Positions 1-13,848 of a stretch of 32,000 nt of DNA are shown in pieces. Origin of the DNA: Candidatus Didemnitutus sp. (GTDB lineage: Bacteria > Verrucomicrobiota > Verrucomicrobiia > Opitutales > Opitutaceae); the NCBI GenBank assembly GCA_035545955.1, contig DASZXI010000045.1:26053-58052 (forward strand). The letters run 5' to 3'. The position numbers and the translations under genes are program-made. A model generated the notes under the pieces. The model was given only the letters and a program-made list of their open reading frames with translations. It did not search any database and had not been told where the DNA came from. Numbering within the stretch: the first letter of the stretch is position 1; the number at the start of each line of letters is the position of its first letter.

Positions 1-1785
1 CAGCTCGGCGCGACCGTCGGCGGTCGGCGTGGCGTTGAGCGCCACGGTGATGCGGCGCTGTTCGCCGGCGGACTGGAGTCCGTTGAGAAAGATTTCCTGA
101 AACGCGTGGGCGAGGCTGGTGCGGTTGCAGCGCAGCATCACGGGCGGCAGGTCGCTCTTCACCTCCAGTTCGGCGGTGCCGCCCGCGTAGGCCCGCGATT
201 TTTCGAAGCTCGACTGCAGGATCTCGTCGAGCGGGGCGAGTTCGGACGCCGGCTGATCCGAGCGGTCCAGCAGCAGCATCTGGTCGGTGAAGCGCTGGAT
301 GCGCTGTGTTTCGCGCGCGAGCGCGGTCTTGAGCGACTCGCGGAAATCGGGATCGTTGATCTCGGCGTCGAAGAGCTGCTCATGCGTCGTGAGCGGCACG
401 AGCGAATTGCGGATCTCGTGGGCGAAGCGGCGCGCGATGAGCGAGATCAGTTTGAGATTCGAAGACTCAATTTCCGCGCGCTGGGCGGCGCGAATGCGCG
501 TGAAATCCTCGAGCAGCAGCATCGCGGTCGGCGGCACGCGCTCGGCGGCGGTGCGGAGCGGGATGACCGTGGCGCGAAACACCGTGCCGGCGGCCTCATG
601 GAAAAACGGCTCGACGGTGGCGCCGAGGTCGATCACCTCGTGCACCCGCGCCGAGATGGCCGGCGGCAGATCGCCCAGCTCGATCGGGCGACCCTGCTCC
701 GTATGAAGAAATCCGGCGAGCGCGCGATTGGTGTAGAGGACGCGTCCGCCCGCGCCGGCCACGAGCGCGCCGACGGTGAGGCCGTCGAGCACGCTGGCGA
801 ACAGGTGATGGCTGCCGACGAGCTGGTGGTGGAGCCAGGAATTCTTGATCGCGAGTCCAAGTTCCTCGAGCAGGTGAAACACCAGCAGAAGTTCGTCGTC
901 CGAAAAATCCCCGCCCATGATGCGGCCGCCGAGCACGGCGACACCGAGCGTGCGCTCGCGATCGTTGACCGGGATCGCGATGCGTCCGCCGAGCACATTG
1001 AACTCGTGGATCACGCGATCGTCGAACAGCGGCGGCATGCTGCCCGTGGGCGCGCGGAGAATCTGCGGGTTGACCGTCAGTTGGCGGCCGAGACCGCTCT
1101 TGCGCGACAGCGAGAACGACTCGACGAGGTCGGCCGGAAATCCGATCGACGCCGCGCACGGCAGATGGGAGCCATCGACTGCGGGTGCGCCCGGCAGCGC
1201 CTCGGGCGCGGGCGGTTCGAGGAAAATCGCGATGCGGGCGATGCCCACGACCTCGCGCAGTTTCAGGATGAAGTGTTGCGTGAGGGAGCGCGTGTCGAGC
1301 GAGTAGCCGAGCACTTGCGAGAAATCGCGCAGCACCTCGAGGGCGGAAGACAACGCGGCCGCGCGCGGATTGAGCGTCGCCCGGGCCGGGGCATACGGAT
1401 CCTCGCCGGGGGGCTTCGCCGGCGCGCGTCGGGCGAAGCGTTCGAGCATGGCGGTCAACGTTGGCGCCTCGATCGGCTGGAACAGGACCAGGTCGACCCC
1501 AAGATTGAGCAGTTTCTGCTGGGCATCGGTGCCCGTGCCGGTGGCAAGCAGCACGACCAGGGGCAGGGTGGGGGCGATGATTCGGGCCGCGGAAACCTCG
1601 TCACAAAATGAGGCATCCACCTTGGCCGGAGCGAAAAGGCACACTTCGAAGGCCCCGGCCACCAAGGCTCCCCGGGCGTCCGCAATCCGGTTGCGGTGAC
1701 GGACCATGAAGTCGGCGGCGGAAGACAGTGCCGTTTGGAGCGGTAACGGCGGGTTTTCTTCAGCAATTAGGAGCAGCCGGGTCAC
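1..1785 (-). CDS. Sensor histidine kinase (receiver-like N-terminus + GAF + PAS-like + HisKA/HATPase_c); C-terminus runs off the window at base 1
   Basis: Not in the ORF track because the frame is open at position 1. Hand translation of the reverse strand is continuous from GTG (1785-1783; V/M-TRLLLIAEENPPLPLQ...) to base 1 (...ITVALNATPTADGRAEL). The H-box 'LISLIARRFAHEIRNSLVPL' is encoded by the reverse complement of ~391-456. GAF-like stretch: '...IPVNDRERTLGVAVLGGRIMGGDFSDDELLLVFHLLEELGLAIKNSWL'. The + strand ORF 106..1611 is its Arg/Ala-rich antisense shadow. The start codon choice (GTG 1785) is tentative. Confidence 0.85.
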   Translation of the reverse strand, partial: MTRLLLIAEENPPLPLQTALSSAADFMVRHRNRIADARGALVAGAFEVCLFAPAKVDASFCDEVSAARIIAPTLPLVVLLATGTGTDAQQKLLNLGVDLVLFQPIEAPTLTAMLERFARRAPAKPPGEDPYAPARATLNPRAAALSSALEVLRDFSQVLGYSLDTRSLTQHFILKLREVVGIARIAIFLEPPAPEALPGAPAVDGSHLPCAASIGFPADLVESFSLSRKSGLGRQLTVNPQILRAPTGSMPPLFDDRVIHEFNVLGGRIAIPVNDRERTLGVAVLGGRIMGGDFSDDELLLVFHLLEELGLAIKNSWLHHQLVGSHHLFASVLDGLTVGALVAGAGGRVLYTNRALAGFLHTEQGRPIELGDLPPAISARVHEVIDLGATVEPFFHEAAGTVFRATVIPLRTAAERVPPTAMLLLEDFTRIRAAQRAEIESSNLKLISLIARRFAHEIRNSLVPLTTHEQLFDAEINDPDFRESLKTALARETQRIQRFTDQMLLLDRSDQPASELAPLDEILQSSFEKSRAYAGGTAELEVKSDLPPVMLRCNRTSLAHAFQEIFLNGLQSAGEQRRITVALNATPTADGRAEL

Positions 1786-1941
1786 TTCCGTGTTATTGCA
1801 TGAACGAAACCGTCCGGCGATGCCCTAGGCAAGCGTTAACTCATCATGTGAACAACATCCGAAAATCGCGACACTACGGGACTTGCTCGTTGATTTTGGT
1901 TAAAAAAATGACACACACTGCCGCGCCGGCCGGCTTGTAAA
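1786..1941. promoter_or_regulatory. Divergent promoter/regulatory spacer between the minus-strand kinase and the LuxD-like/methyltransferase operon
   Basis: 156-bp non-coding gap, visibly more AT-rich than its flanks (e.g. 'ttgattttggttaaaaaaatgacacacac', 'cttgtaaaatg'), between two divergently oriented starts. No individual -35/-10 pair could be assigned with confidence. Confidence 0.4.
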
Positions 1942-3639
1942 ATGATCGCAGACTCCACGCCTGTTCAGGCGGGTCAACTACGCACCGATTTCGTCAGCTT
2001 CCCGAACCGCACGGGATTGCGGTTGGCGGCCTGCCTCGACCACACGGGCGACCTGACCGGAAGGCCCTGGGTCATCGTCGCCCCCAAATACGGGGAGACC
2101 AAGAAAAACAACCTCCAGTTGTCCTACTACCTCGCCAGCAACGGCCTGAATGTGCTGCGGTTCGATCAGACCAATCATTTGGGCGAAAGCGAGGGTCGGA
2201 TGCAGGATTTCAGCCTGCCGGGCGCGGTGGATGACATCCTGGGCTGCCTCGATTTTCTCGGATCGCAGTACCAGGCGGCAGGTGCGGTATTGATTTCCAA
2301 CAGTTTGTCGGCGCGCTGCGCCTACCGCGCGGCGGCAAGAGACTCCCGGATCACGCGCGTGATCAGCGTGGTGGGCGTCGTCAACATGCAGTCGACGCTG
2401 CGCGAGGTCTACAAGGACGACATTTTTGGCACCTACCTGGCGGGCCGGCACTGGGGCCTCACCGACATCCTGGGCTTCGACATCAACGGTGAGATCTTCC
2501 TCGGCACCGCGGTCGAGGCGGGAATGCACGATCTCGCCGGTACGATCACGGACATCGCGCGCATCCGGGTTCCGATGGTATACTTCTTCGCGATGAACGA
2601 CACGTGGGTCACCTACGACGATGTGTTGCGCGCGACGGAGAATCAACCGATGTGCCGGCTCATCGCGGTTGAAGGGGCGATGCACGAGGTGCGCGAAAAT
2701 CCGCGCGCGGCCGAGGGCGTGTTCCGGCAGATCATCTGGGCGTGCCGGCACGACACCGCGTATCCCGGCGACGAACAGGCGCGCCTCGAAATACCCGACA
2801 TGAAACTGATCCTGGCGCAGAATCGCCAGGAGCGGGAGCGCATGCGCCGATCGGAGGCGCCGGCGGAATCGGAGCACACGTTTTGGTCGGGCTACCTCGA
2901 GAAATACAGCGTGCTCGAGAAATCGGAGGACTATCATCAGTACATCGCGTTGCTCGGCCGACTGTGCGCGTTTCGTCCGGGCGCACTCGTGCTCGACGCC
3001 GGCTGCGGCAATGGAATGTTCGGGCTCTGGGCGCTGCGCGAGGCCCTGACGCAGCGGCGTGTGGTGACGGCGCGCGATCTGCCGGCGATGTACGTGGGCA
3101 TCGATCTCACCGAGCGTGGACTCGGTGACGCCGTGGGCCATCATCGCGGCGCGCTGCGCAAGGGCGCGGGCGAGCTCGCGCACCGGGCATCTCCGGGGAC
3201 CGGCTATCTGCGTTTTGATTTCAACGATCTGCTCGACGAGCGTGGCGGCCCGCGGCTGCCGTTTGCCGATCAGACTTTCGACGTGGTCTGCTGCAGCCTG
3301 GTGCTTTCGTATCTCAAGCGGCCCCAGGCGTTGTTGAAGGAACTCGCGCGCGTGGCGAAACCGGGCGCCGTCCTGGTCACCTCGAGCATGAAGCCGCATT
3401 GTGACATGTCGGTGATCTACCGCGATTTCATGGCGCAGCAGGTGACTTCGGAGGAACTCGAGGCGGCGCGCGATCTGCTGCGCGCGGCGAGCAAGATCCG
3501 ATTGAAGGAGGAAGTAGGCCATTATGCGTTCTTCTCGGACACCGAACTTGCCGCGTTGGCCAGCGAGGCCGGATTCAGCGTGCAGGAGAGCTTTCACTCG
3601 CTCGGTAATCAGGCGATCGTGATCAAGGCGCAGAAGTGA
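1942..3639 (+). CDS. Two-domain enzyme: LuxD-family acyl transferase/thioesterase (alpha/beta hydrolase) fused to a class I SAM-dependent methyltransferase
   Basis: 565-aa ORF. The N-terminal ~290 aa match LuxD as I recall it: 'SNSLSARCAY' (LuxD 'AASLSARVAY'), 'VVGVVNMQSTLREV' (LuxD 'AVGVVNLRDTLEKA'), 'FFAMNDTWV', 'EGAMHEVRENP'. The C-terminal ~250 aa carry methyltransferase motifs: 'VLDAGCGNGMFG' (motif I), 'YVGIDLTE', 'FDVVCCSLVLSYL', 'LARVAKPGAVLVTSS'. Confidence 0.85.
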   Translation: MIADSTPVQAGQLRTDFVSFPNRTGLRLAACLDHTGDLTGRPWVIVAPKYGETKKNNLQLSYYLASNGLNVLRFDQTNHLGESEGRMQDFSLPGAVDDILGCLDFLGSQYQAAGAVLISNSLSARCAYRAAARDSRITRVISVVGVVNMQSTLREVYKDDIFGTYLAGRHWGLTDILGFDINGEIFLGTAVEAGMHDLAGTITDIARIRVPMVYFFAMNDTWVTYDDVLRATENQPMCRLIAVEGAMHEVRENPRAAEGVFRQIIWACRHDTAYPGDEQARLEIPDMKLILAQNRQERERMRRSEAPAESEHTFWSGYLEKYSVLEKSEDYHQYIALLGRLCAFRPGALVLDAGCGNGMFGLWALREALTQRRVVTARDLPAMYVGIDLTERGLGDAVGHHRGALRKGAGELAHRASPGTGYLRFDFNDLLDERGGPRLPFADQTFDVVCCSLVLSYLKRPQALLKELARVAKPGAVLVTSSMKPHCDMSVIYRDFMAQQVTSEELEAARDLLRAASKIRLKEEVGHYAFFSDTELAALASEAGFSVQESFHSLGNQAIVIKAQK

Positions 3640-5735
3640 CGCGGTACCTCATCGTCTCCTCGTTCCTGAACTTCCTCGCGGCGGGCATGCTCGCCTTCGC
3701 GGTGGTGGTGCGCGGACGCAAGGACAGCATCAACGTGCGTTTCGGCGTGTTCGCGCTGGCGATCGGCAGCTGGTCGGCGGGCTACCTGCTCTGGCAGATT
3801 TCCGAGGACGCCGTGCGGGCACTGTTTTTCACCCGGCTGCTGATGTTCTTCGCGTACTTCGTGCCGACGACCTTCCTCCATTTTATCGTGGAGCTTTGCG
3901 GCGAGCGGAAGCGCACCTGGGTGCGGATCGCGTACGCGGTTTCAGCCGTGTTCGCCGGGCTCAACTTCACCTCGCTCATGGTCGACCACATCGAACCGGT
4001 GCGGGGCTTTCCCTACTGGCCGATCGCGGGCGCGTGCTACTGGCTTTACCTGTTGTTCTTTGCCGCCTGCACCGTTTACGCGGGCTGGCTGCTGGTTTCC
4101 AATCTGCGCACCGCCACCGGCGGACGCGCCGTGCAGCTGCGTAACATCCTGATCGCCTCGATCGTCGGGTTCGGCGGCGGTGCCACGAACTTCCCGCTCT
4201 GGTACCGGATTCCGCTGCCGCCGCTCGGCATGCCGCTGATTTTCCTCTACCTCGTGATCATGGCGCACGCGGTGTCGCGCTACCAGTTGCCGCTGGTGAC
4301 GTATGATTTCATGCACGCGGCGGTGCACGTGGGCTTCAGCGTCACCATCGCCGTCATCTATCTGGTGGTGCTCGCGGCGATCTCGCCGTTCATCGACTAC
4401 CCGCTGACGCCCGAAACCCTGCTCACCCAGTTCATGCTGTGCGTGGTGGTCTGCCTGTTTTTCATCTGGGCGGTGCCGCGCATGAACCGCGCGGCCAACC
4501 GGCTGATGGCGGAAACGTACCTGCGCCGGCGCAATACCCAACAGATGAACTTGAAGGAGCTGAGCCGACGCATTGCCGCGCTCGGCAGCGAGCAGGAAAT
4601 CTTCGAGAACTCCGTGCGCGAGATCACCCGCGCCTTCGGCCTCGGGGCCGCGGCGGTCTACGCCCGCAGCGAATTTGACCACGACTATCAGCTGCGGGCC
4701 ATGCACGGCTGGTCGCGCTGCCCGCCGGCGCTGCCGCTGAGCTCGCCGCTCGCCCGCGTGTTCGCCCAGCGCATGGCGCCACTGCTGATCGACGGCACCG
4801 AGCTCGAGCTCGGCCCCGCCGTGGCGGGAGAGATCGAACAATTCCGGCGTGAACTCGCCTTCGAGGCCGCGTTTCCGGTGGCGTCCGACGACTTCCTGTC
4901 CGGCCTGCTCCTCCTTGGCCGGCGCGAGGGCGGCGAGCGGTACACGGAAGCCGAGCTGAGCCTGCTCGAGTCCACCTGTCTGCAGATTGCCGTGACGCTG
5001 CGCGCGCGCCAGCTCGAGCGCCGCGCGAGCCAGACCGAAAAACTGATTTCGCTCGGCACGCTCGCCGCCGGCCTCGCGCACGAGCTGCGCAATCCGCTGA
5101 CCTCGGTGCAAACCTTCACGGCGCTGCTCAAGGAAAAGCATCCCGATCCCGAGGCGTTGCACGAGTTCAGCAGCGTGGTGCTCCGCGACGTCAACCGGAT
5201 CACCAGCATCGTCGAAAACGTGTCGGCCTTTGCCGAGAGCAACATCGTCGCGATGACCTCGGTGCATCTGCCCGACGTGCTGCAGACAGTGGCGGACATC
5301 GTGCGGCCGGAGCTGACCCGCACCGGCGTGAAACTGGAGGTGCCGGTCGTCACCGTGCCGCCGGTGCGCGGCAACAACAGCCAGCTTTTGCAGGTGTTCC
5401 TGAATCTCACGCAGAACGCGATCCAGGCGCTCGACGGCAAGCCGGGCGGTCGCATTTCCTTCGGACTCGACACACGCGTCACCGACGTGCCGCAGCCCCT
5501 GCTCTTCGTCAGCGTGGCGGACAATGGTCCCGGCATCGATCCCGACGTCCTGCCGCGGATTTTCGAGCCGTTCACCACGACGAAGGCGACGGGTGCGCGC
5601 ATCGGCAAGCACGGCATGGGGCTCGGCTTGGCGATCGTGAAGCGCATCATCCAGCATCATCACGGCGACATCGACGTGACCAGCGCGGTCGGAGGAGGCA
5701 CGACCTTCCGCGTGCAACTGCCGCTTTTCGCGTGA
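3636..5735 (+). CDS. Membrane-embedded sensor histidine kinase (about nine N-terminal TM helices, GAF, HisKA, HATPase_c)
   Basis: 699-aa ORF. The GTG start overlaps the upstream TGA (GTGA, 3636-3639). The first ~300 aa are almost entirely hydrophobic helices with short loops, resembling the histidine-kinase N-terminal 7TM type. GAF-like: '...FLSGLLLLGRREGGERYTEAELSLLESTCLQIAV'. H-box: 'LAAGLAHELRNPLTSV'. ATPase motifs: 'LNLTQNAIQA', 'DNGPGIDPDVLPRIFEPFTTTK', 'GMGLGLAIV'. Confidence 0.9.
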   Translation: MTRYLIVSSFLNFLAAGMLAFAVVVRGRKDSINVRFGVFALAIGSWSAGYLLWQISEDAVRALFFTRLLMFFAYFVPTTFLHFIVELCGERKRTWVRIAYAVSAVFAGLNFTSLMVDHIEPVRGFPYWPIAGACYWLYLLFFAACTVYAGWLLVSNLRTATGGRAVQLRNILIASIVGFGGGATNFPLWYRIPLPPLGMPLIFLYLVIMAHAVSRYQLPLVTYDFMHAAVHVGFSVTIAVIYLVVLAAISPFIDYPLTPETLLTQFMLCVVVCLFFIWAVPRMNRAANRLMAETYLRRRNTQQMNLKELSRRIAALGSEQEIFENSVREITRAFGLGAAAVYARSEFDHDYQLRAMHGWSRCPPALPLSSPLARVFAQRMAPLLIDGTELELGPAVAGEIEQFRRELAFEAAFPVASDDFLSGLLLLGRREGGERYTEAELSLLESTCLQIAVTLRARQLERRASQTEKLISLGTLAAGLAHELRNPLTSVQTFTALLKEKHPDPEALHEFSSVVLRDVNRITSIVENVSAFAESNIVAMTSVHLPDVLQTVADIVRPELTRTGVKLEVPVVTVPPVRGNNSQLLQVFLNLTQNAIQALDGKPGGRISFGLDTRVTDVPQPLLFVSVADNGPGIDPDVLPRIFEPFTTTKATGARIGKHGMGLGLAIVKRIIQHHHGDIDVTSAVGGGTTFRVQLPLFA

Positions 5736-5804
5736 GCAATTTGTTCGCTTCCCGCGCCGTCCTCGCGCAATGACTTCGAGCGCTTCCGCCACCCCTGTTG
5801 CCCA

Positions 5805-7160
5805 ATGACATTGCTCGCCCCCAACACCATCACGATGGACGGGCCGGCGGCGCTGCGTGCCCTCGCGCGGGCGTTCGCGCATCTCGGCGACTTCGATCGT
5901 TTCGTGGCGGGATTGCAGGCGGCGCTCGACCGGTCGTCGCTGTTTGCCCGGACCACGCTGGCGATCGATCGCGGGATCGCGGGCGAGCGTTTTCCCGCCG
6001 GCACGATGAGCCTGCCGTTGGGGGACGGCGTCCATCCGGGCGGACACCTGCAGGCGGTCGCCGGAGGAGAGAACCGGCAATTCGGAGCCGAGGACCTGCA
6101 CCTGCTGGCCGGACTCGCGGATTTTCTTTCGTCCGCGCTGGCCGCCTCGGCGCAGATGCAGGCGGCGGGTCAAGCGCGGGAGCTGCTCCGTTTCCTGCTG
6201 AATCAGGCGCCGGTCGGCCTAGCCGCCTTCAACGCCGACCGCACGCCGGCGGTGGCCAACGATCTGGCGCGACGGTGGCTGGGCGACGCCGCGCTGCCGA
6301 TCGAGGATTTCGAAAAGGCCACGGGCGGCTTTCATCTGCGCGCCGGCGGAAAACTCATCTATGGCGAGGCCCGGCGCATGCCGGCGCCGTGCGAAGGCCT
6401 GTGGATGGTGGCACTGCACGACCTCACGGCCGACCAGGCCCGGCTGCTGGAACTCATCCGGCGCGAAACCTATCGCGCCCTCGCGCAAAAGGGAAAATTC
6501 GGCTTCGCCCTGATCGAGGGCACCGCCATGGCGGACGGCGTCCTGCGGCGCCTGCCTGATCTGCGGGCGGCGTTGACGCTCGGCGAAACCGGCGGGCCGT
6601 ACGATGCGCACCGCCTCGGCATCGTTTTCAGTGAAGTCAACGGACTCGCCCTGCGCGCGCGTCTCAGAAAAATGCGGTCGGTCTTCGCCGGAGTCGAAGG
6701 CTTGCGCGTCGGCTACGCGGAACTCGGCCGCGGCGGATCGACGCCGGAAAGCCTGCTCGAGGCGGCGCTGCAGGCGTCGGCGCCCTACGACGACGCCGTG
6801 CGCTCGGCGGTGCTGGTGCACGACGAGAATCCCGCCGTCACCGACACCTTTGCGCTGCTGTTGGGGCGCGACTTCAATGTGGTCAAGAGCTCCCAGGCCG
6901 CGCGCACGCGCGAGCTGCTCGAGCGCGGAATGTACGAGGGATTCGTCGCCGAGCTGGAGTCGCGCAATGGACCCGACGGTGCCGAACTGATGAAGTTTGC
7001 GCGCGCCAAGCTGCCGGGCATCCGTCCCTTTTTTCTCACCGCGCGCCATCCCGCACTCGATGGCAAGGGCGAGACCGGCAAGGAGGACGCCGTGGTGATC
7101 GAAAAGCCGTTCGACGTCTCTGCCGTCACGCAGATCGTCCGGGAAAAGCTGGCGGATTGA
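5805..7160 (+). CDS. Multidomain signalling protein: GAF-like + PAS-like + degenerate GGDEF-like + C-terminal receiver-like domain
   Basis: 451-aa ORF, 69 bp downstream of the kinase. PAS-like: 'LLRFLLNQAPVGLAAFNADRTPAVANDLARRWLG'. The GGDEF-like core has its signature replaced: 'GGPYDAHRLGIVFSEV' where R-Y-G-G-D/E-E-F is expected, followed by 'VGYAELGRGGSTPESLLEAALQA'. Receiver-like tail: 'AVLVHDENPAV...PFFLTARH...VIEKPFD'. Domain calls are by eye only. Confidence 0.75.
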   Translation: MTLLAPNTITMDGPAALRALARAFAHLGDFDRFVAGLQAALDRSSLFARTTLAIDRGIAGERFPAGTMSLPLGDGVHPGGHLQAVAGGENRQFGAEDLHLLAGLADFLSSALAASAQMQAAGQARELLRFLLNQAPVGLAAFNADRTPAVANDLARRWLGDAALPIEDFEKATGGFHLRAGGKLIYGEARRMPAPCEGLWMVALHDLTADQARLLELIRRETYRALAQKGKFGFALIEGTAMADGVLRRLPDLRAALTLGETGGPYDAHRLGIVFSEVNGLALRARLRKMRSVFAGVEGLRVGYAELGRGGSTPESLLEAALQASAPYDDAVRSAVLVHDENPAVTDTFALLLGRDFNVVKSSQAARTRELLERGMYEGFVAELESRNGPDGAELMKFARAKLPGIRPFFLTARHPALDGKGETGKEDAVVIEKPFDVSAVTQIVREKLAD

Positions 7161-7346
7161 TGTAGGGCGGGGCCGCCGAACCCCGCCTTTGGTTCGGGCA
7201 GGTGCCCACGAAATAACACGAATAGCAAAGCCCGACCAAGTCGGACAGGTTTTCACTTCGCCGGATTTTCGTTCTTTTCGGTGGGGGATCGATTTGGCGG
7301 GGTTCGGCCCATTCGACAGGCTCAGGGCAGGCGAACCCGCCCTACA
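7161..7346. repeat. REP/REPIN-like composite: truncated inverted copy (7161-7187) plus full copy (7296-7346) of the GTAG-hairpin repeat
   Basis: 7161-7187 'TGTAGGGCGGGGCCGCCGAACCCCGCC' is the reverse complement of both ends of 7296-7346 'GGCGGGGTTCGGCCCATTCGACAGGCTCAGGGCAGGCGAACCCGCCCTACA'. The same ~50-nt unit recurs at 12257-12306, 12397-12446 and 21717-21766. The interior holds a degenerate CACGAA/CACGGA word (7204-7226). Confidence 0.65.
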
Positions 7347-7409
7347 CCAGGCAGCTGGCCGGTTTTGCGAATCACCGAAGGTCGGCGCGGAAATCGATCC
7401 CGATCAGGA

Positions 7410-7436
7410 AAACGCGTTGGGGACAACGCGTTCCAC
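7410..7436 (-). terminator. Hairpin immediately downstream of the ABC ATPase stop codon (member of the AACGCGTTG hairpin repeat family); possible intrinsic terminator
   Basis: On the minus-strand RNA: GUGGAACGCGUUG-UCCC-CAACGCGUU followed by UUCC. It starts 1 nt after the stop codon at 7438-7440. Nearly the same hairpin occurs at 16208-16236. The U-tract is short, so terminator function is uncertain. Confidence 0.45.
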
Positions 7437-7437
7437 C

Positions 7438-8421
7438 TCATTGCGCCGTCGCGCCGCGCGAAAAGATTTCGCTGATGATGTCCTCGAGCGGCACGTCCTG
7501 GATCGTGATGTCCTCGACCGCTCCCTGATTGAGAATCTGCTGGCAGACGTCCGTGATTCGCTCGCTCGGCACATGCAGCGTGATCTCGCCGTCGTCACCG
7601 GTGCGCGCCGTGCCGTGGGCCGGTTTCCAATCGGGCGGAAACGCATTGTCGCCCGGACGGAACTTGATGATCCGCTGGCGCGCGCCCGCGCCGGCGATGC
7701 GGTCGAGGGCGCCGTCGTAGATCTTGCGGCCATGATCGATCACGATCACGCGTTCGCACAGTTGCGAAATGTCGGCCATGTAGTGGCTCGTGAGCAGGAT
7801 GGTCGTGCGGTGCCGGCGGTTGTAGTCGCGCAGAAAATCGCGCACGGCCTTCTGCGAGATGACGTCGAGTCCGATTGTGGGTTCGTCGAGAAAGAGGACC
7901 CGCGGTCGATGCAGGAGCGCCGCGATCAGTTCCATCTTCATGCGCTCGCCGAGCGACAACTCGCGCACCTGCACGTTGAGTTTGTGGCGAACTCCGAGCA
8001 GATCGACCAGCTCGTCGAGCGTCGCCTGGTATTGCGCCGGATCGAGGTCGTAGATGGCGCGCAGCAGATAGAACGACTCGAGGGCCGGCAGGTCCCACCA
8101 CAGCTGGTTCTTCTGTCCGAGCACGAGGGCGAACAGGCGCCGATAGGCATTTTCGCGTTTGGAGGGATCGAAGCCGGCGACGCGCGCCTGGCCACTGGTC
8201 GGGTAGATCAGGCCCGAGAGCATCTTGAGCGTGGTGGTCTTGCCGGCGCCGTTCGGGCCGAGAAAGCCGACGAATTCGCCCTCCTTGATCGAAAACGAAA
8301 CATTGTCCGCCGCGCGGGTCTCCTCGAAGTCGCGCTTGAAGAGCCCTTGCAGGCCGCCCCAGAACCCGGGCTTCTTCTTGTAGGTGCGGAAGACGCGGGT
8401 GAGGTTTTCGACTTCGATCAT
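7438..8421 (-). CDS. ABC transporter ATP-binding protein (ABC-2/'uncharacterized transport system' type with C-terminal extension)
   Basis: Walker A 'GPNGAGKTT', signature 'LSLGERMKM', Walker B 'VLFLDEPT', H-loop 'LTSHYM'. The ORF track starts at 8448 (MFPCSLGAR-). The second Met (MIEVENLTRVF, ATG at 8421) fits the usual N-terminus of this family better. Confidence 0.9.
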   Translation of the reverse strand: MIEVENLTRVFRTYKKKPGFWGGLQGLFKRDFEETRAADNVSFSIKEGEFVGFLGPNGAGKTTTLKMLSGLIYPTSGQARVAGFDPSKRENAYRRLFALVLGQKNQLWWDLPALESFYLLRAIYDLDPAQYQATLDELVDLLGVRHKLNVQVRELSLGERMKMELIAALLHRPRVLFLDEPTIGLDVISQKAVRDFLRDYNRRHRTTILLTSHYMADISQLCERVIVIDHGRKIYDGALDRIAGAGARQRIIKFRPGDNAFPPDWKPAHGTARTGDDGEITLHVPSERITDVCQQILNQGAVEDITIQDVPLEDIISEIFSRGATAQ

Positions 8422-8580
8422 GCGGGCGCCGAGTGAACACGGAAACAACCCGGATGCAAACCCGACGCGCCGCCAAGCCGGCCTTCAGGGGGCCATAAGG
8501 CGGTTTACAATCCTCCTACGAGGCTCAAGAACCGTCCCGTTGAGCCGATCTTCCGGGCAGCTCCGGAAGCCATCCCTCTC

Positions 8581-11500
8581 GTGTCAGCAGTTCGTCATAG
8601 CCTCGACCGGCATTTGTCCGGCCGAAGCGCCATCATCTTTGCCTGGGTCGCGGGCCTGACCCTCGGGATAGCTCTGCGTGCCCAGCCGGCGCCTCCCCAT
8701 ACGTCGGGGCCGATCCTGTCGGCCGGCGAGATTTGGACGGTCCCGGAACCGCTGCGGAAGACGAGCTTCCCGGTGAAAATGGAGTTCACCGCGAACTATT
8801 ACGACGCGGCGTGGCATCTCCTGTGGGGCGAGGATGGCGGTGGCTGTTTTTTCCTTCCGATTACCGCCAATCCCCTGGCCATCCGAAGCGGCCAGCGGGT
8901 GCGCGTCGAGGGCACGGTGGTGCCGGCGGACGGACTCGATGGGCCGCAACTCAAGATCACCGTGCTGCAACGCGATGCCTGGGCCGAACCGCGCCCGACC
9001 GCGGGACGCGTCGACGATGTGGCCGCGCTCGATCCGCGCTGGGTCGTCGTGACCGGCTACGTCGTTGGCCAGCAGGAGGTCGATTCGACGCATTTTCTGA
9101 TCACCGTGCTGAGTGATGGGCGGCTCATTAACGCCCGCGTCCAGGTCGGAGCCAACGACCCGGTGCCGCAGTTGATCGGCGCGCGCGTCCAGCTCTACGG
9201 CGTCTACATCGCCAATCGCGACCCGGCCGGAGCGTTGCACGACATCAACCTCTGGGTTCCGCGACGGCAGGACGTTCGCCTGCTCACGTGGTTGTCCGAT
9301 GACGCCCGGTTTCTGCTGCCGCGGACGGCGCTGGCCTCCCTCGCGGAATCGGCCGCCGCGCCGTGGATTCGCGCGATCGGCGAGGTCAAGGCGACGGAGC
9401 CCGGGAAATCAATCACGCTGCGGGACGACACCGGCCAGATCACAGTCGCAACCGCGCAGCTGGGTGATTTTCCGGCCGGCGCCAAGGTCGAGGTCGTCGG
9501 CCACCCGGTGAGCACGAATGCCGGCTGGGTGCTGGGCGATCCCATTTTCCGGCGGAAGGAGGATGGAGCCGGCGAGAAGGCGCTCGCGTCGACGACGGAC
9601 GTCCTTTCTCGGCTCCGACTCGCCCAACAAGTTCTCGCTCTCCCCAGTGCGGACGCCGAACGGGGCTTTCCCGTGACGCTCCGCGGCGTCGTCACGTGGG
9701 TGGACCGCCGGGCCGACATTTTCTACCTGCAGGACTCGAGCGGGGGCGTCCGGGTGCGCTGCTTCAATGTCGCCTCGCCGCCGCCGATCGGAGCGTCCGT
9801 GTCGATGACCGGTTTGACCGTGAGCGGCTCGTTTGCTCCCGAGGTCCAGATGCGCGACTTTCATGCGGTCAGTCCGCTGCCGCCGCCTCCGGCGCATCCA
9901 CTCTCGCTGGAACAGGCATTGACCGGCGCGTACGAAAGCCAATGGGTCGAGATGCGGTCCTATGTGCACGCGGTCGAGGACGAAGGTGACTGGACCCGCC
10001 TGGACTTGACGGCCGAGACCGGCGAGTTCAGCGCCTATGCGCCAGCCGAGAAGTCCCTGCATGCGTTGGTGGGGGCCGTTGTCCGGCTGACCGGAGTATG
10101 CATGGCCGAGGTGAACGGCAACCGCGAGTTGACCGGCATCAGGTTGTGGGTGCCGAGTCGAGACTCTGTGAGCGTTGACGATACGCCGGCGGCCGATCCC
10201 TTCGGCAGCGCGGTCCGATTCATCGCGAGTCTGCGTCAATTCCGAGGGTCCGGCGAGGCCGGGCGTCGGGTGCACGTCGCCGGTTGCGTGCAAATGACCG
10301 GATCGAAGCACTATTTTCATCTGCAGGACGCGAGTGGCGGCATCCTGGTGCTGACGCGCGATCCGCGTCCGCTGGCTGTCGGCGACTGGGTCGAGGTGGT
10401 CGGATTTCCCGGACGCAGCGGCAGCCGCCCGGTGTTGCGCGAGGCGGTGTGGCGGTCGATGCCGGCGGGAGAACCGATCGACGCCGCGACGATCACGAAC
10501 ACGGCGATCATCAGCACGGAGCTGGATACCCGCCTCGTCCGGGTGGAGGCGACGCTGCGACAGGTTGGATTGGAGCCCGACCGGACCAAGCTCGCGCTCA
10601 ATGCCGATGGAATCAATTTCGACGCGGTGCTCGACGGCGGGCATCCCGATCCCGTGCCGCCGCCGGGCAGCCGGTTGCGGGTGACTGGAATCTATCTGGT
10701 CGAATACGACGAGGACCATCAACCGCGTGGTTTCCGCCTGCAGCTGCGCTCGCCGGACGACGTCGCCGTGCTGGCGCCGCCGCTCTGGTGGACGCCCGGC
10801 CGCGTGATGCTGGTGGCCGCGGGATTCGCCTGCTGCACCGTGCTCGGATTCGTGTGGGTGACGCTGTTGCGGCGTCGCGTGCGGCGGCAGACCGAACAGA
10901 TCCGTCTGCAAATGGAAAAGGAGGCGCGCATGCAGTCCGAACTCGAACGCTCGTCGCGTCTCGATTCGCTCGGCGTGCTGGCCGGTGGCATCGCGCATGA
11001 TTTCAACAACCTTCTGACGGCGATCATGGGCAACATCGGGCTCCTCCGGCTCGATCCGGGCGTGATGAGTTCCGCGAGCGAACAGGTGCTGGCGGCGGAG
11101 CGCGCCGCCAAGCGGGCCGGCGACGTCACCCAGCAACTCCTCACCTTTGCCAAGGGCGGCGATCCGGTGCGCTCGATCGTCGACCTGCCGGAACTTGTGC
11201 GCGAGGCGGCGGGTTTCGCCCGTCACGGGTCGAGCGTGCGCGTGGAATTCAATTTTCCCGCCGACCTGCCGCCGGCGGACGTCGACTCCAGCCAGATCAG
11301 CCGCGTGGTGCACAACCTCGTGCTCAACTCGGTGCAGGCCATGGCCACGGGCGGCGTGGTGCAGATATCGCTCGCGGCCTTCCACCTGGCGGCGGGCGAG
11401 GTGCCTCCGCTGATGGCGGGACGCTATCTCCGTCTGACGATTGCCGACAATGGTCCGGGGATTCCCGCGGCGCGCCTGTCGCGCATCTTCGACCCCTATT

Positions 11501-12096
11501 TCTCGACCAAGGCGAAGGGAAGCGGACTCGGACTCGCGACCGCGCACTCGATCGTGAAGAAACACCAGGGCACCATTGCCGTGGATTCAACCCTCGGGCG
11601 TGGCACGACCTTCCACATCTGGTTGCCGGCCGCGGTGCGACCGGCGACGGCCACCCGGGTGCCCACGGCGGATCCGGGCTTCGGCGTTCACGCCCGCATT
11701 CTTTTCATGGATGACGAGGAGGTCCTGCGCAATCTCGTCCAGAGTTTCCTCGCCCGATCCGGCCACGAAGGCACGCTGGTCGCCGATGGCGCCGCGGCCG
11801 TTGCGGCCTACGCCGAGGCGCGGGCGCAGGGGCGCGGCTACCAAGTGGTGATCCTCGACCTCACCGTGCCGGGCGGCATGGGCGGGCGGGACGCCGTCGC
11901 GGAGTTGCGTCGGATCGATCCGGAGGTGTGCGCGGTGGCCTCGAGCGGCTATTCCAACGATCCGGTCATGGCCAATCATCGCGCCTACGGATTCGCCGCG
12001 GTGATGCCGAAGCCTTACGACTTCGAGACTTTCAACCGCGTCATCGGCCGACTTCAGCTCTCGCGCAAGTCCGCGTCCATCGCACCGGCGGTCTGA
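8581..12096 (+). CDS. Hybrid sensor histidine kinase/response regulator with a ~700-aa periplasmic domain built from repeated OB-like modules
   Basis: 1171-aa ORF with a GTG start. Signal/anchor 'RSAIIFAWVAGLTLGIALRAQ'; second TM 'VMLVAAGFACCTVLGFVWVTLL'. H-box 'LAGGIAHDFNNLLTAIMGN'. ATPase motifs: 'DNGPGIPAARLSRIFDPYFSTK', 'GSGLGLATAHSIV'. Receiver: 'RILFMDDEEV...VVILDLTVPGGMGG...ASSGY...MPKPYD'. Confidence 0.9.
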   Translation: MSAVRHSLDRHLSGRSAIIFAWVAGLTLGIALRAQPAPPHTSGPILSAGEIWTVPEPLRKTSFPVKMEFTANYYDAAWHLLWGEDGGGCFFLPITANPLAIRSGQRVRVEGTVVPADGLDGPQLKITVLQRDAWAEPRPTAGRVDDVAALDPRWVVVTGYVVGQQEVDSTHFLITVLSDGRLINARVQVGANDPVPQLIGARVQLYGVYIANRDPAGALHDINLWVPRRQDVRLLTWLSDDARFLLPRTALASLAESAAAPWIRAIGEVKATEPGKSITLRDDTGQITVATAQLGDFPAGAKVEVVGHPVSTNAGWVLGDPIFRRKEDGAGEKALASTTDVLSRLRLAQQVLALPSADAERGFPVTLRGVVTWVDRRADIFYLQDSSGGVRVRCFNVASPPPIGASVSMTGLTVSGSFAPEVQMRDFHAVSPLPPPPAHPLSLEQALTGAYESQWVEMRSYVHAVEDEGDWTRLDLTAETGEFSAYAPAEKSLHALVGAVVRLTGVCMAEVNGNRELTGIRLWVPSRDSVSVDDTPAADPFGSAVRFIASLRQFRGSGEAGRRVHVAGCVQMTGSKHYFHLQDASGGILVLTRDPRPLAVGDWVEVVGFPGRSGSRPVLREAVWRSMPAGEPIDAATITNTAIISTELDTRLVRVEATLRQVGLEPDRTKLALNADGINFDAVLDGGHPDPVPPPGSRLRVTGIYLVEYDEDHQPRGFRLQLRSPDDVAVLAPPLWWTPGRVMLVAAGFACCTVLGFVWVTLLRRRVRRQTEQIRLQMEKEARMQSELERSSRLDSLGVLAGGIAHDFNNLLTAIMGNIGLLRLDPGVMSSASEQVLAAERAAKRAGDVTQQLLTFAKGGDPVRSIVDLPELVREAAGFARHGSSVRVEFNFPADLPPADVDSSQISRVVHNLVLNSVQAMATGGVVQISLAAFHLAAGEVPPLMAGRYLRLTIADNGPGIPAARLSRIFDPYFSTKAKGSGLGLATAHSIVKKHQGTIAVDSTLGRGTTFHIWLPAAVRPATATRVPTADPGFGVHARILFMDDEEVLRNLVQSFLARSGHEGTLVADGAAAVAAYAEARAQGRGYQVVILDLTVPGGMGGRDAVAELRRIDPEVCAVASSGYSNDPVMANHRAYGFAAVMPKPYDFETFNRVIGRLQLSRKSASIAPAV

Positions 12097-12154: not shown

Positions 12155-12240
12155 GTGACCGCGGATTTCTCGGATAACACAAATCGATCCACGGAGCCGT
12201 GCTTGATAATCCGTGTCATCCGTGAAATCCGTGGTCAAAA
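12155..12240. repeat. Inverted pair of CACGGA-word arrays forming a long imperfect palindrome
   Basis: Left arm 'GACCGCGGATTTCTCGGATAACACAAAT'. The reverse complement of the right arm is 'GACCACGGATTTCACGGATGACACGGAT' (about 22/28 identical). The centre is 'CACGGAGCCGTG'. Related arrays are at 17614-17645, 17742-17776 and 21607-21638. Confidence 0.6.
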
Positions 12241-12256
12241 GGTTCGATCGATCAAC

Positions 12257-12306
12257 GGCGGGGTTCGGCCCTTCGACAAGCTCAGGGCGAGCGACCCCGC
12301 CCTACA
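12257..12306 (+). repeat. GTAG-hairpin (REP-like) repeat, full copy
   Basis: 'GGCGGGGTTCGGCCCTTCGACAAGCTCAGGGCGAGCGACCCCGCCCTACA'; stem GGCGGGGT/ACCCCGCC. Confidence 0.65.
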
Positions 12307-12396
12307 GCCGTGGAGACGTCACGAAGGAACGAACTGAACTGCCTGGGCAGATTTTCTCTGCGCTGGAAACTCGTGATATTCGTGGGCGATCGTTTT

Positions 12397-12446
12397 GGCG
12401 GGATTCGGACCTTCGACAGGCTCAGGTCAGGCGATCCCGCCCTACA
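12397..12446 (+). repeat. GTAG-hairpin (REP-like) repeat, full copy
   Basis: 'GGCGGGATTCGGACCTTCGACAGGCTCAGGTCAGGCGATCCCGCCCTACA'; stem GGCGGGAT/ATCCCGCC. Confidence 0.65.
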
Positions 12447-12464
12447 TCCGGAGAAGCCGGGAAA

Positions 12465-13280: not shown

Positions 13281-13290
13281 CTCGCGGGGC

Positions 13291-13803
13291 TCAGCCCTCC
13301 GCGGGAGGCACGACCTCGGCCTGACGGCGCTTGGAGTCGGCGAGCAGCCACACCATGTAGGCCACCACGATGAGATTCAGCATCAGGGTCGAGTAGCGGA
13401 CCCAGGTCGGGTGTTTGGCCAGTTCGAAGACCTCGATCGGAATGTAGACGCCGCCGCTGAACGCCGCGAACCACTCCGCCCATTTGCGCTCGAACCACAA
13501 GCCGTAGGCCTCGATGAAACGCACCGTCGCGTAAAGCGCCGCCACTCCTGCCAGCAGCCAGAGCTGGGTGTCCGTGACATTCGACATCCACTCCACGAAA
13601 GCCTTCATGTAGTGATTCGCCGGGTCCAGATGCATCCGGACGATCAGCTTCTCGGCGATCTGCTCCGCGTCGCGTCCGAGCAGGCTCAGACCGCTGAGTC
13701 CCGCCACCAGGCCCAGAAATCCCTTGAACGCCTCGAAAACGGCGATCGGACGAAGGGCCTTGTGGGCAATCGATTTCACGGGGCCGATAACCCTAGGCCA
13801 CAT
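13291..13803 (-). CDS. DUF2127-type small integral membrane protein
   Basis: 170-aa ORF with four hydrophobic helices. '[27 protein letters not shown]...' and '...[40 protein letters not shown]' resemble the DUF2127 family as I remember it. It lies 10 bp upstream of surE. Confidence 0.65.
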
Positions 13804-13811
13804 CCGGTCCG

Positions 13812-13848
13812 CGGAAAGAAAAAAGCCACGGCGATCGGCCGTGGCTTT
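13812..13848 (-). terminator. Rho-independent terminator downstream of pnp
   Basis: Minus-strand RNA: AAAGCCACGGC-CGAUC-GCCGUGGCUUU followed by UUUCUUUCC (stem 13822-13832/13838-13848, U-tract 13812-13821). It begins ~20 nt after the pnp stop at 13868. Confidence 0.75.

Follow-up and report, generated by a model that had tools for sequence, protein, structure and literature searches.

A LuxD-like/methyltransferase fusion gene (g1) and the membrane-embedded histidine kinase gene that overlaps it (g2) look like an undescribed lipid-based signalling system of the Opitutales (Verrucomicrobiota), with counterparts in Nitrospira and Omnitrophota. It seems about evenly balanced to us whether the locus indeed encodes a lipid-signal synthase/receptor pair within a multi-kinase relay. 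This reading builds on what was observed: which domains and catalytic residues the proteins have, that the locus is conserved, that enzyme and kinase are paired across phyla, and that the cassette has a mosaic structure among relatives. The features of the window, the 32,000-nucleotide stretch of Candidatus Didemnitutus DNA analysed here, are:

1-1785, minus strand: g0, soluble histidine kinase, first 595 of ~665 aa; the gene runs off the window
1786-1941: divergent g0/g1 intergenic region, 156 bp, whose g1-adjacent part falls within the variable cassette in certain locus pairs
1942-3639, plus strand: g1, 565 aa, LuxD-like hydrolase fused to a class I SAM methyltransferase
1942-2811, plus strand: g1 N-terminal domain (aa 1-290), LuxD-like alpha/beta-hydrolase acyl-transferase/thioesterase with the triad S121 (SLSAR motif), D220 and H248
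2929-3639, plus strand: g1 C-terminal domain (aa ~330-565), class I SAM-dependent methyltransferase, motif I VLDAGCGNG
1942-5000, plus strand: putative specificity cassette, g1 and the first ~440-460 codons of g2 (TM and GAF sensor half)
3636-5735, plus strand: g2, 699 aa, 9-TM HisKA_7TM-GAF histidine kinase
3636-4490, plus strand: g2 sensor (aa 4-281), nine TM helices of the HisKA_7TM family, predicted N-terminus out and C-terminus in
4587-5000, plus strand: g2 GAF domain (aa ~318-455), E 2e-5
5016-5735, plus strand: g2 transmitter, DHp/HisKA (H-box HELRNPL; E 2.5e-13) and HATPase_c (E 1.3e-26)
5805-7160, plus strand: g3, 451 aa, with GAF-like (~1-125), PAS (~126-227), degenerate GGDEF-like (~228-325) and pseudo-receiver (~333-451) domains
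7166-7194, plus strand: possible operon-closing terminator, GC-rich hairpin and T-rich tail (GGCGGGG-N8-CCCCGCC TTTGGTT) directly after the g3 stop

The first-pass annotation had read g1 as a LuxD-like/methyltransferase fusion, and this is borne out by a match to the Pfam family Acyl_transf_2/LuxD (PF02273; E 2.9e-25, 89.6 bits against a cut-off of 20.3), by a PDB profile match to the myristoyl-ACP thioesterase of V. harveyi (1THT; E 3.8e-31) and by an AlphaFold model for which Foldseek returns 1THT as best structural match (TM 0.81). The residues S114, D211 and H241 of 1THT align with S121, D220 and H248 of g1, the nucleophile lying in a common SLSAR motif. This triad is invariant in alignment A1; across phyla (alignment A4) Asp and His never vary, and the nucleophilic Ser is nearly invariant. 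What had been called a thioesterase-like domain thus truly has the acyl-transferase fold of LuxD, and its Ser/Asp/His triad aligns. It differs from LuxD itself in sharing only ~21% identity with it, in scoring 89-90 bits, far under the NCBIfam LuxD equivalog cut-offs of 420 and 529, and in being fused to a methyltransferase instead of working with LuxE and LuxC, lux genes being absent nearby. LuxD takes the acyl group from acyl-ACP onto Ser114, and the free acid is passed to a partner enzyme (PMC6279958). The LuxD-like domain of g1 is similarly predicted to free a fatty acid from the carrier, and the fused methyltransferase would turn the released acyl into its methyl ester or a methylated acyl product close to it.

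The methyltransferase domain has an intact SAM motif and matches Methyltransf_23, 11, 31, 12 and 25 of Pfam (E 5e-15 to 5e-9). Its closest PDB sequence match is LahSB (6UAK), its structural matches are generic class I methyltransferases, and comparison with known fatty-acid O-methyltransferases gave no diagnostic similarity (NCBIfam Mtf2, E 0.007). A methyltransferase and an alpha/beta-hydrolase are also what BioC and BioH would contribute to a fusion for pimelate (biotin) synthesis, automatic JGI annotation gives some homologues the name 'pimeloyl-ACP methyl ester carboxylesterase / SAM-dependent methyltransferase', and a weak BioC match is found (E 6e-8). This explanation is nevertheless scarcely credible, given that the BioC match reaches 32.7 bits against a cut-off of 184.95, the hydrolase is of LuxD and not of BioH type, bio genes occur in none of the contexts examined, sensor kinases are invariable neighbours, and the fusions to PilZ and REC domains described below would be senseless for a cofactor pathway.

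The kinase g2 scores 33.9 bits against the HisKA_7TM family (PF16927; cut-off 28.6). Hydropathy reveals nine hydrophobic segments within aa 4-281, every loop being 14 aa or shorter, in line with the earlier description of about nine TM helices with almost no periplasmic loops, and the charge distribution agrees with the positive-inside rule. Direct reading of the DNA confirms the overlap of the g2 start with the g1 stop (GTGA, 3636-3639). The spacing between g2 and g3 is 69 bp (5736-5804).

The locus is kept in 74 Opitutales genomes, and beyond the left end of the window it continues with genes for a FadL channel and a REC-kinase. Among related genomes with enough flank g2 is found in 59 of 59, g3 in 53 of 53 and g0 in 64 of 66 cases, and the 4-nt overlap of g1 and g2 is retained in 48 of 59 loci; the cassette is therefore more than a chance assembly. 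The REC-kinase accompanies it in 47 of 52 loci and FadL in 46 of 59, the absence of FadL from the other 13 tracking the background phylogeny and not the cassette. The conservation of the neighbourhood, for which the first-pass annotation had proposed a check, thus holds within the order, and the order enzyme-kinase holds even across phyla. FadL and the REC-kinase had escaped that annotation, as had the wider enzyme family, its link to PilZ and c-di-GMP, and the pseudo-receiver status of g3.

In other phyla the enzyme module is mostly fused to c-di-GMP-binding PilZ domains (61 of 87 N-terminally extended representatives) or to lipid-binding SRPBCC domains, and REC fusions also occur. In all seven contexts examined in other lineages, among them Nitrospira, Ca. 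Nitronereus and Omnitrophota, the enzyme gene is directly followed by an orthologous HisKA_7TM-GAF kinase gene. The TM domains of these partner kinases from Nitrospira, Omnitrophota and others share 28-38% identity with that of g2 (E 1e-30 to 2e-49) and are far closer to it than other 7TM proteins of the same loci. In several of the contexts genes for fatty-acid or lipid synthesis and for c-di-GMP enzymes are close by: in one the enzyme gene lies within a plsX-fabH-fabD / fabG-acpP-fabF cluster, in another directly after KS-ACP-KS-FAD oxidoreductase genes, and in a further one beside PlsC-like, LpxL-like and MGDG-synthase genes. The versions outside Opitutales, those of Omnitrophota among them, have REC-HD-GYP or GAF-HD-GYP proteins as neighbouring regulators, which couples these systems to c-di-GMP turnover.

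Such contexts would also suit a circuit for membrane or acyl-pool homeostasis without cell-to-cell signalling, in which the 7TM-GAF kinase would respond to some physical property or to the composition of the membrane, or to an acyl intermediate. The LuxD-methyltransferase would then be a regulated effector by which acyl chains are withdrawn or modified, switched by c-di-GMP via PilZ in other phyla. By its frequent PilZ fusion the enzyme is marked as an effector under second-messenger control, in L079 the gene of a PilZ-enzyme is directly preceded by that of a 7TM-GAF-GGDEF cyclase, the location inside a fab cluster and beside lipid acyltransferase and glycolipid genes fits, and so does a loop-less multi-TM sensor, which is what intramembrane sensing would call for. 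The PilZ fusion suits a signal synthase and a membrane-remodelling enzyme equally well and to that extent counts against the signalling reading, as does the finding that the Opitutales locus encodes no DNA-binding or enzymatic output domain. On the other side, the enzyme gene precedes the sensor gene and is coupled to it in translation, the arrangement known from synthase-receptor operons, and an outer-membrane FadL in the locus suggests a hydrophobic molecule moving across the envelope. We consider homeostasis the less probable explanation, and somewhat unlikely, also because it leaves unexplained the mosaic found among Opitutales.

Pairwise distances of g1, the g2 TM part and the g2 GAF domain correlate at 0.79-0.89 among themselves, but only at 0.38-0.55 with those of g0, the g2 transmitter, g3 and the REC-kinase. 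The g2 transmitter evolves with this background set (correlation of 0.87-0.92 with g0, g3 and the REC-kinase). The right breakpoint lies at g2 codons 437-461 and is common to six locus pairs, and a left breakpoint 150-347 nt upstream of g1 was found in two pairs. In L020 and L041 both flanks are 87-90% identical at the nucleotide level and g0 and the REC-kinase are 89-94% identical, whereas the cassettes lack nucleotide similarity and the g1 proteins share 49% of their residues. Cassettes 61% divergent are found in backgrounds 10% divergent, and the same cassette types recur across differing backgrounds. Judged from these sequences the cassette has a history separate from that of its flanking genes, and synthase and sensor look to be exchanged between relatives as a matched set. 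A homeostat would not explain why near-identical backgrounds carry discrete and highly divergent alleles of enzyme and sensor that co-vary, nor why the same cassette types recur in different lineages.

Two properties bear on how this mosaic is to be read. g1 directly adjoins the 5' half of g2, so that the two can easily recombine together as one piece of DNA, and since the cytoplasmic GAF domain lies within the variable cassette, the co-variation could stem from an interface at which the enzyme and kinase proteins meet and not necessarily from ligand specificity. An interface of enzyme and partner or substrate would also be compatible with a methyl-ester cycle, in which the methyltransferase adds and the alpha/beta-hydrolase removes an ester on one substrate. 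This would be a small molecule, for turnover of the signal, or the neighbouring kinase, whose acidic residues would be modified in a sensor adaptation similar to CheR/CheB. Formally opposing esterase and methyltransferase activities are joined in a single polypeptide, and many structural neighbours of the hydrolase are carboxyl-esterases. Yet neither CheR nor CheB is matched in Pfam or NCBIfam, the hydrolase is specifically LuxD-like, 1THT being best by sequence and structure, the ACP, ketosynthase and fab gene contexts suggest an acyl-ACP substrate, and a protein substrate would leave the SRPBCC fusions unexplained, all of which makes such a cycle improbable.

In the signal synthase/receptor reading, the hydrophobic product of g1 would partition into membranes, in most Opitutales crossing the outer membrane via the locus-encoded FadL channel, and we infer that it acts from cell to cell. 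A role of FadL would have a precedent in rhizobia, where it helps to perceive long-chain AHLs (PMC5977203). The nine-helix sensor of g2 and the adjoining GAF domain would detect the product inside the bilayer, upon which g2 might transfer phosphate to the REC-kinase, which is encoded in the divergent operon and has a canonical receiver. Matched enzyme and sensor variants would set separate signal 'dialects'.

The soluble kinase g0 and the adaptor g3 could modulate this relay. The part of g0 in the window comprises a pseudo-receiver that lacks the acceptor Asp, then GAF and PAS domains and a weakly matched HisKA with the H-box His, HATPase_c falling outside. A full-length orthologue (L024:3494-5488; 89% identical) has the complete series of pseudo-receiver, GAF, PAS, HisKA and HATPase_c (E 4e-18; GAF and PAS matches weak), which upholds the earlier reading as a divergent GAF/PAS kinase with a pseudo-receiver. 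The g3 protein of the window has no match in Pfam, but among 30 orthologues GAF is matched in 18, Response_reg in 14, PAS in 7 and GGDEF_2 in 1, and Foldseek relates its model (pLDDT 77.6) to receiver domains (2RDM, TM 0.82), PAS-GGDEF and phytochrome-diguanylate-cyclase chains. In alignment A2 an invariant G-P-Y-D, its Tyr nearly invariant, stands in place of GGDEF, and Glu occupies the position of the phospho-acceptor Asp while K434-P435-F436 is retained. The proposed domain architecture therefore stands, but by its acceptor site g3 is a pseudo-receiver and not a phosphorylatable response regulator.

The locus had been compared to phcBSR of Ralstonia solanacearum (phcBSRQ with phcQ included), where likewise a gene for a synthase containing a SAM-methyltransferase is followed by one for a membrane histidine kinase in one operon and the quorum-sensing signals are methyl 3-hydroxymyristate or methyl 3-hydroxypalmitate. 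The locus also shares with Phc a PhcR-like protein of receiver and kinase and receiver-type proteins without DNA-binding domains (PMC8578825). Moreover, PhcB and PhcS group by signal type and PhcR and PhcQ follow phylogeny (PMC8578825), as g1 and the g2 sensor half co-diversify and the downstream regulators follow phylogeny. In contrast, g1 has 565 aa and an N-terminal LuxD-like acyl-transferase domain, whereas descriptions of PhcB, of 464-468 aa, mention only a methyltransferase domain; the sensor here is 9-TM HisKA_7TM plus GAF, the REC-kinase lies in the divergent operon, g0 is an additional soluble kinase, g3 an additional pseudo-receiver adaptor and FadL a further addition, the PhcA-type LysR gene is absent from this locus, and the phylum is another. 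The proposed interpretation is supported in part: its computationally testable points all speak for it, through the conserved order, the LuxD-type hydrolase, the REC-kinase and the co-diversification, and g3 as phosphorylatable response regulator does not hold up. The analogy to a lipid methyl-ester synthase with an intramembrane receptor gains substantially in strength; likeness to Phc is meant here as an analogy and is no evidence that the locus belongs to it.

In the DSF/Rpf system the synthase RpfF is a crotonase, RpfC the kinase and RpfG a REC-HD-GYP protein. The likeness would lie in a fatty-acid-derived signal and a membrane kinase as its sensor (in part after PMC4504480). HD-GYP regulators adjoin the non-Opitutales versions, including those of Omnitrophota, but the synthase families are unrelated, and the Opitutales locus lacks HD-GYP and has only the degenerate GGDEF-like domain of g3. 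In comQXP of Bacillus the signal-making genes are hypervariable, as is the 5' sensor part of the kinase gene, which varies in step with them, against a conserved 3' kinase core and a conserved regulator (PMC12935306, PMC4408185). The Opitutales cassette is the same kind of mosaic of enzyme and sensor half. The agrBDC pherotype loci of Staphylococcus show this mosaic as well. Both differ in having peptide signals, where a lipid is presumed here, and in being polymorphic within species, whereas species-level representatives were compared here. The alpha-hydroxyketone systems CqsA/CqsS and LqsA/LqsS make a hydrophobic signal from an acyl thioester and encode beside the synthase a multi-TM kinase without periplasmic domain. 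They resemble the present locus in the presumed origin of its signal and the loop-poor kinase, and differ in a PLP-dependent acyl-transferase as synthase, a six-TM sensor of another family and the lack of a methylation step.

A consensus scan of the g0-g1 intergenic region (1786-1941) gave no sigma-70-like promoter. An open reading frame on the plus strand (7189-8436) was rejected as cassette member, being an antisense shadow of a minus-strand ABC ATPase. The hairpin at 7166-7194, seen by direct reading and unreported by the terminator scan, may tentatively be taken as the terminator of the operon.

The three co-oriented genes g1, g2 and g3 occupy the left part of the window (G+C ~65%) next to the divergent gene g0. 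Proteins with 100% identity to g1 and g3 occur in a Candidatus Didemnitutus sp. MAG (Opitutaceae, Verrucomicrobiota). The GTG start of g2 overlaps the TGA stop of g1 by 4 nt and g3 follows after a gap of 69 bp, the arrangement that the first-pass annotation had read from the sequence, and its coordinates for all four genes are exact.

Genes of the locus within the window
1-1785, minus strand: g0, soluble kinase, extending beyond the window edge
1942-3639, plus strand: g1, 565 aa, LuxD-like domain (PF02273, E 2.9e-25), then class I SAM methyltransferase (Pfam)
3636-5735, plus strand: g2, 699 aa, histidine kinase with HisKA_7TM, GAF, HisKA and HATPase_c (Pfam)
5805-7160, plus strand: g3, 451 aa, starting 69 bp past g2

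What kind of enzyme is g1? Several lines of evidence bear out the LuxD-like/methyltransferase fusion proposed initially. The protein scores 89.6 bits against PF02273 (Acyl_transf_2/LuxD; threshold 20.3), and a profile of 13 homologues matches the V. harveyi myristoyl-ACP thioesterase LuxD (1THT) at E 3.8e-31, with the SLSAR nucleophile motif in common. Ser121, Asp220 and His248 align with Ser114, Asp211 and His241 of LuxD, Ser114 being the residue that is acylated (PMC6279958). The triad is invariant in the Opitutales alignment (A1), and in the cross-phylum alignment (A4) Asp and His are invariant and Ser nearly so. Moreover, the best Foldseek structural match of the AlphaFold model (pLDDT 77) is again 1THT, with a TM score of 0.81. 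The likeness to LuxD thus extends to family, fold and catalytic residues, but g1 is not the lux-operon equivalog, as it reaches 89–90 bits where the NCBIfam cut-offs are 420 and 529 and has no luxCDABE context, lux genes being absent from the window and the related loci. The methyltransferase half carries a SAM-binding motif; its sequence and structure matches are generic, so that the methyl acceptor is one we infer. A role of this methylation in a methyl-ester cycle or in CheR/CheB-like adaptation is improbable and was rejected as poorly supported. The same holds, at a still far lower probability, for a BioC/BioH fusion, since g1 scores 32.7 bits against BioC (cut-off 184.95), its hydrolase is LuxD-type and not a BioH-type esterase, and no bio genes occur in any context examined.

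Hydropathy analysis placed nine hydrophobic segments in aa 4–281 of g2, none of the connecting loops exceeding 14 aa, in agreement with the earlier description of about nine transmembrane helices nearly devoid of periplasmic loops, and the charge pattern is consistent with a predicted topology of N-terminus outside and C-terminus inside. HisKA_7TM (PF16927) is matched with 33.9 bits (threshold 28.6), followed by GAF, HisKA and HATPase_c. A link to PrsK, the kinase of XrtA/PEP-CTERM systems, and to exosortases was rejected, as the TIGR02916 and TIGR03100 matches are weak and far under their cut-offs (102 bits versus 300 for PrsK), the similarity being limited to a multi-TM-GAF-kinase layout. 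The g3 protein of the window has no Pfam match; among 30 orthologues GAF is found in 18, Response_reg in 14, PAS in seven and GGDEF_2 in one. Its structural model matches receivers (2RDM, TM 0.82) and PAS-GGDEF/phytochrome-cyclase proteins in Foldseek. The similarity to diguanylate cyclases is at the level of the fold, without the GG[DE]EF motif: in the orthologue alignment the site reads G-P-Y-D and is invariant except for the nearly invariant Tyr. The architecture of GAF, PAS, degenerate GGDEF and receiver assigned at first stands, with the exception that the receiver lacks the acceptor Asp. The acceptor position at the end of beta-3 is a Glu in the window and most orthologues, with K-P-F kept, and because Glu replaces the phospho-acceptor, g3 is predicted to be a non-phosphorylatable pseudo-receiver adaptor, not a response regulator. 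For g0, the 89%-identical orthologue in the related locus L024 contains a pseudo-receiver, GAF, PAS, HisKA with its His, and HATPase_c, in line with the GAF/PAS kinase with a pseudo-receiver described initially.

How far does the locus extend? One scan of GTDB species representatives yielded 74 related loci, nearly all labelled as Opitutales-type Verrucomicrobiota, including Puniceicoccaceae and the complete genome of the cultured strain IMCC26134, with two MAGs labelled 'uncultured Akkermansia sp.'. The genes left of the window were read from L024 as proxy (88–89% identical). Conservation in related genomes, which the first-pass annotation had named as a check, was found: counting only loci with enough flank, g2 is present in 59/59, g3 in 53/53 and g0 in 64/66, and the 4-nt overlap of g1 and g2 is retained in 48/59. 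Downstream of g0 follow a FadL/TodX outer-membrane channel gene (46/59) and a gene for a REC-HisKA-HATPase_c protein (47/52), a kinase of 421 aa with a canonical receiver that belongs to the divergent operon (REC-kinase). In IMCC26134 this six-gene locus is bordered by unrelated genes, CusBA-type efflux genes at one end and ribF-truB-nrnA-infB at the other. These borders, the antisense nature of neighboring open reading frames and a non-conserved hybrid kinase delimit the conserved unit to REC-kinase, FadL and g0 in one direction and g1, g2 and g3 in the other, the first two lying outside the window.

In 13/59 loci, mostly of more divergent lineages (L019, L040, L053, L054, L057, L058, L060, L061, L064, L066–L068, L071), no FadL gene lies between g0 and the gene for REC-kinase, and L060 carries a FadL homologue at another place in the locus, on the opposite strand. 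On the right-hand side, three candidates for additional members were rejected. An open reading frame at 7189-8436 (plus strand) seemed conserved in tblastn, but its translation is antisense-like and Pfam places an ABC ATPase on the minus strand; likewise, a 1216-aa open reading frame proved to be antisense, and the plus-strand stretch 12213-16252 lies opposite three minus-strand genes. High-GC antisense frames can pass for conserved genes.

Minus-strand genes right of g3 (Pfam)
7438-8448, minus strand: ABC ATPase
12465-13280, minus strand: SurE
13291-13803, minus strand: DUF2127
13868-16063, minus strand: PNPase

The third candidate, a hybrid histidine kinase of 1171 aa at 8581-12096 (plus strand), occurs at this position in none of the 74 related loci and so appears to be a lineage-specific insertion that separates surE from the ABC ATPase gene; its N-terminal ~770 aa give only weak OB-fold matches (tRNA_anti-codon, Rep_fac-A_3). 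Directly 3' of the g3 stop, a GC-rich hairpin at 7166-7194 (GGCGGGG-N8-CCCCGCC, then TTTGGTT) looks like a candidate terminator, although it was not among the output of the terminator scan. A sigma-70 promoter scan gave no match and an Rfam scan of the window no riboswitch or known RNA family at threshold.

Within the Opitutales the locus is a mosaic. In 41 loci with all five genes (REC-kinase, g0, g1, g2 and g3), pairwise distances of the two g1 domains, the TM part and the GAF domain of g2 correlate with each other at 0.79–0.89, and those of g0, the g2 kinase core, g3 and REC-kinase at 0.85–0.92, whereas correlation between the two groups, which we call cassette and background, is only 0.38–0.55. 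Partial correlations with g0 and REC-kinase controlled are 0.70–0.88 inside the cassette and at most 0.27 outside. By sliding identity to the window, loci of equal background similarity fall into discrete classes. Over the whole of g0 these classes differ by about zero; between the g1 start and roughly aa 460 of g2 the difference is +0.13 to +0.59, and it is zero again from g2 aa 481 on and throughout g3. Two related loci, L020 and L041, illustrate this pattern. Their nucleotide identity is 87% as far as 150 nt ahead of g1 and 90% beginning with g2 codon 445, while the interval is almost devoid of nucleotide similarity; at the protein level, identity is 89% for g0, 94% for REC-kinase and 85% for g3, but 49% for g1 and 51% for the whole g2 protein. 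In six locus pairs of different backgrounds the right breakpoint lies within g2 codons 437–461, where GAF and DHp meet; the left one is variable, and the same cassette types are found again in differing backgrounds. FadL was rejected as a member of this specificity cassette, since it tracks the background phylogeny. Because the cytoplasmic GAF domain sits inside the cassette, direct contact of enzyme and kinase is another possible cause of the co-variation, and would still imply a functional pair. L062 and L064, two g0-g1-g2 copies from one MAG (B12_G4), were rejected as a mosaic pair, being uniformly 73–75% identical at the nucleotide level; either the genome harbors two such systems in parallel, or the bin combines two strains.

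A variable 5' and a conserved 3' part of the sensor kinase gene is the pattern known for comP in the comQXP pherotypes (PMC12935306, PMC4408185). Most pertinently, it has been reported for the Phc system, where PhcB and PhcS cluster according to signal type and PhcR and PhcQ according to phylotype (PMC8578825); in the Opitutales, synthase and sensor group by cassette type and the downstream regulators by phylogeny. The phcBSR-like order suggested before, synthase, membrane histidine kinase and receiver-type regulators, holds up, g1, g2 and g3 being co-oriented in the window and their order conserved in 59/59 and 53/53 loci. A PhcR-like protein of receiver and kinase, similar in architecture only, is encoded in 47/52 loci, but in the divergent operon. 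Differences are the extra LuxD domain of the Opitutales synthase and the origin of its sensor from the orphan HisKA_7TM family. As for PhcB, g1 has a class I methyltransferase domain, and no PhcB-named model is among the 25 NCBIfam matches. Phc uses a methyl 3-hydroxy fatty acid as signal, with output through the LysR regulator PhcA; in IMCC26134 (L059), the locus inspected for it, neither the six genes nor their flanks include a LysR-type gene, although such a regulator may be encoded farther away. The Phc literature found gives protein lengths and a 'methyltransferase domain', and no PhcS topology or PhcB domain map. The locus therefore appears Phc-like in several tested respects, by a comparison of architecture and published description that does not establish membership.

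The enzyme family extends far beyond the Opitutales and is linked to c-di-GMP. Searching 1.84 billion cluster representatives with a profile gave 474 at E <= 1e-30, named sources including Omnitrophota, Nitrospira and Ca. Nitronereus, and the best 149 of these include 117 with a complete LuxD-methyltransferase module. Of the 117, only 27 are bare like g1, and 87 carry an N-terminal extension of more than 100 aa. Nine examples were scanned with Pfam and served as seeds for local HMMs; by these scans, 61 of the 87 extensions contain PilZ (17 of these 61 being REC-PAS-PilZ-PilZ) and 11 contain SRPBCC/START-like lipid-binding domains. Such PilZ fusions favor the main rival explanation, a cell-autonomous homeostat of the membrane or acyl pool with the enzyme as c-di-GMP-controlled effector, which we consider unlikely; the allelic structure of the cassette argues against it. 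Even if it were true, an acyl-ACP-withdrawing, methylating enzyme under c-di-GMP control and coupled to an intramembrane sensor would be new to membrane biology.

Is the partnership with the kinase specific to the Opitutales? In all seven contexts from other lineages, picked solely on sequence length, a HisKA_7TM-GAF kinase is encoded directly downstream of the enzyme gene (7/7).

Enzyme contexts in other lineages
L075, Nitrospira: neighbor 7TM-GAF kinase
L076, Omnitrophota: enzyme between plsX-fabH-fabD and fabG-acpP-fabF; two 7TM kinases, REC-HD-GYP
L077: two enzyme paralogues, sigma-54 regulator, REC-HD-GYP
L078, Ca. Nitronereus: neighbor 7TM-GAF kinase
L079: 7TM-GAF-GGDEF protein immediately upstream
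L080: enzyme directly after ketosynthase-ACP-ketosynthase-FAD oxidoreductase genes
L081: PlsC-like, radical SAM, PilZ-methyltransferase, GAF-HD-GYP, MGDG synthase and LpxL-like genes

The g2 TM domain is 28–38% identical to that of the kinases immediately downstream of the enzyme (E 1e-30 to 2e-49) and far less similar to other 7TM proteins of those loci, which argues on sequence grounds that the enzyme and this particular sensor are an ancient pair. The neighboring genes repeatedly point to acyl-ACP/lipid metabolism and c-di-GMP turnover.

The best-supported reading of the locus, to which we would give an even chance, is a lipid-signal synthase with its receptor. It could be imagined that g1 releases an acyl chain and then methylates it, that g2 detects the product within the membrane, and that three kinases together with two pseudo-receiver proteins form the relay in which the signal is processed. 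FadL, which aids long-chain AHLs in rhizobia (PMC5977203), might help the product across the outer membrane. More tentatively, with the balance tipping slightly against it, the LuxD-methyltransferase and HisKA_7TM-GAF kinase pair may constitute a new family of lipid autoinducer systems across Verrucomicrobiota, Nitrospirota, Omnitrophota and other phyla, gated by c-di-GMP through PilZ in many lineages and diversified into private dialects by exchange of matched cassettes. The principle, a fatty-acid-derived signal sensed by a two-component system, is known; in the literature searched the enzyme family and its PilZ fusions are undescribed. Searches found no study joining LuxD, methyltransferase and Verrucomicrobia or PilZ and LuxD, no combination of fatty acid O-methyltransferase and thioesterase, no description of the enzyme-kinase gene pair or of PilZ fusions of the enzyme, and HisKA_7TM only in two census or review papers with no ligand reported. 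If the reading is true, the mosaic of matched cassettes would parallel peptide pherotypes with a lipid as the signal, and be a case of 'dialect' evolution for such a signal; the thioesterase-methyltransferase fusion would be a new signal-synthase family, and its product would provide HisKA_7TM, a widespread orphan sensor domain, with its first class of ligand. The PilZ fusions would tie lipid signaling directly to c-di-GMP. Since no published study of the gene pair was found in that literature, such signaling would be uncharted in Opitutales, Nitrospira and Omnitrophota, poorly tractable bacteria that abound in soil, fresh water and engineered nitrifying systems.

Some further features of the loci in other phyla deserve mention. 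Downstream of the PilZ-fused enzyme of Nitrospira, a 1002-aa kinase (L075:11764-14772) has two tandem HisKA_7TM domains, both matching the g2 sensor (E 1e-34 and 5e-7). Enzymes of c-di-GMP metabolism next to the enzyme-kinase pair comprise GGDEF, 7TM-GAF-GGDEF, REC-HD-GYP and GAF-HD-GYP proteins (L076:6348-6989, L076:15491-16501, L077:20492-21591, L079:6630-8723, L081:13810-14973), and the Opitutales locus retains only the degenerate GGDEF-like domain of g3. Just upstream of the SRPBCC-fused enzyme in L081, a separate PilZ-Methyltransf_20 protein (L081:7251-8600) and a second 7TM kinase are encoded, hinting at a second c-di-GMP-controlled methylation step in this lineage.
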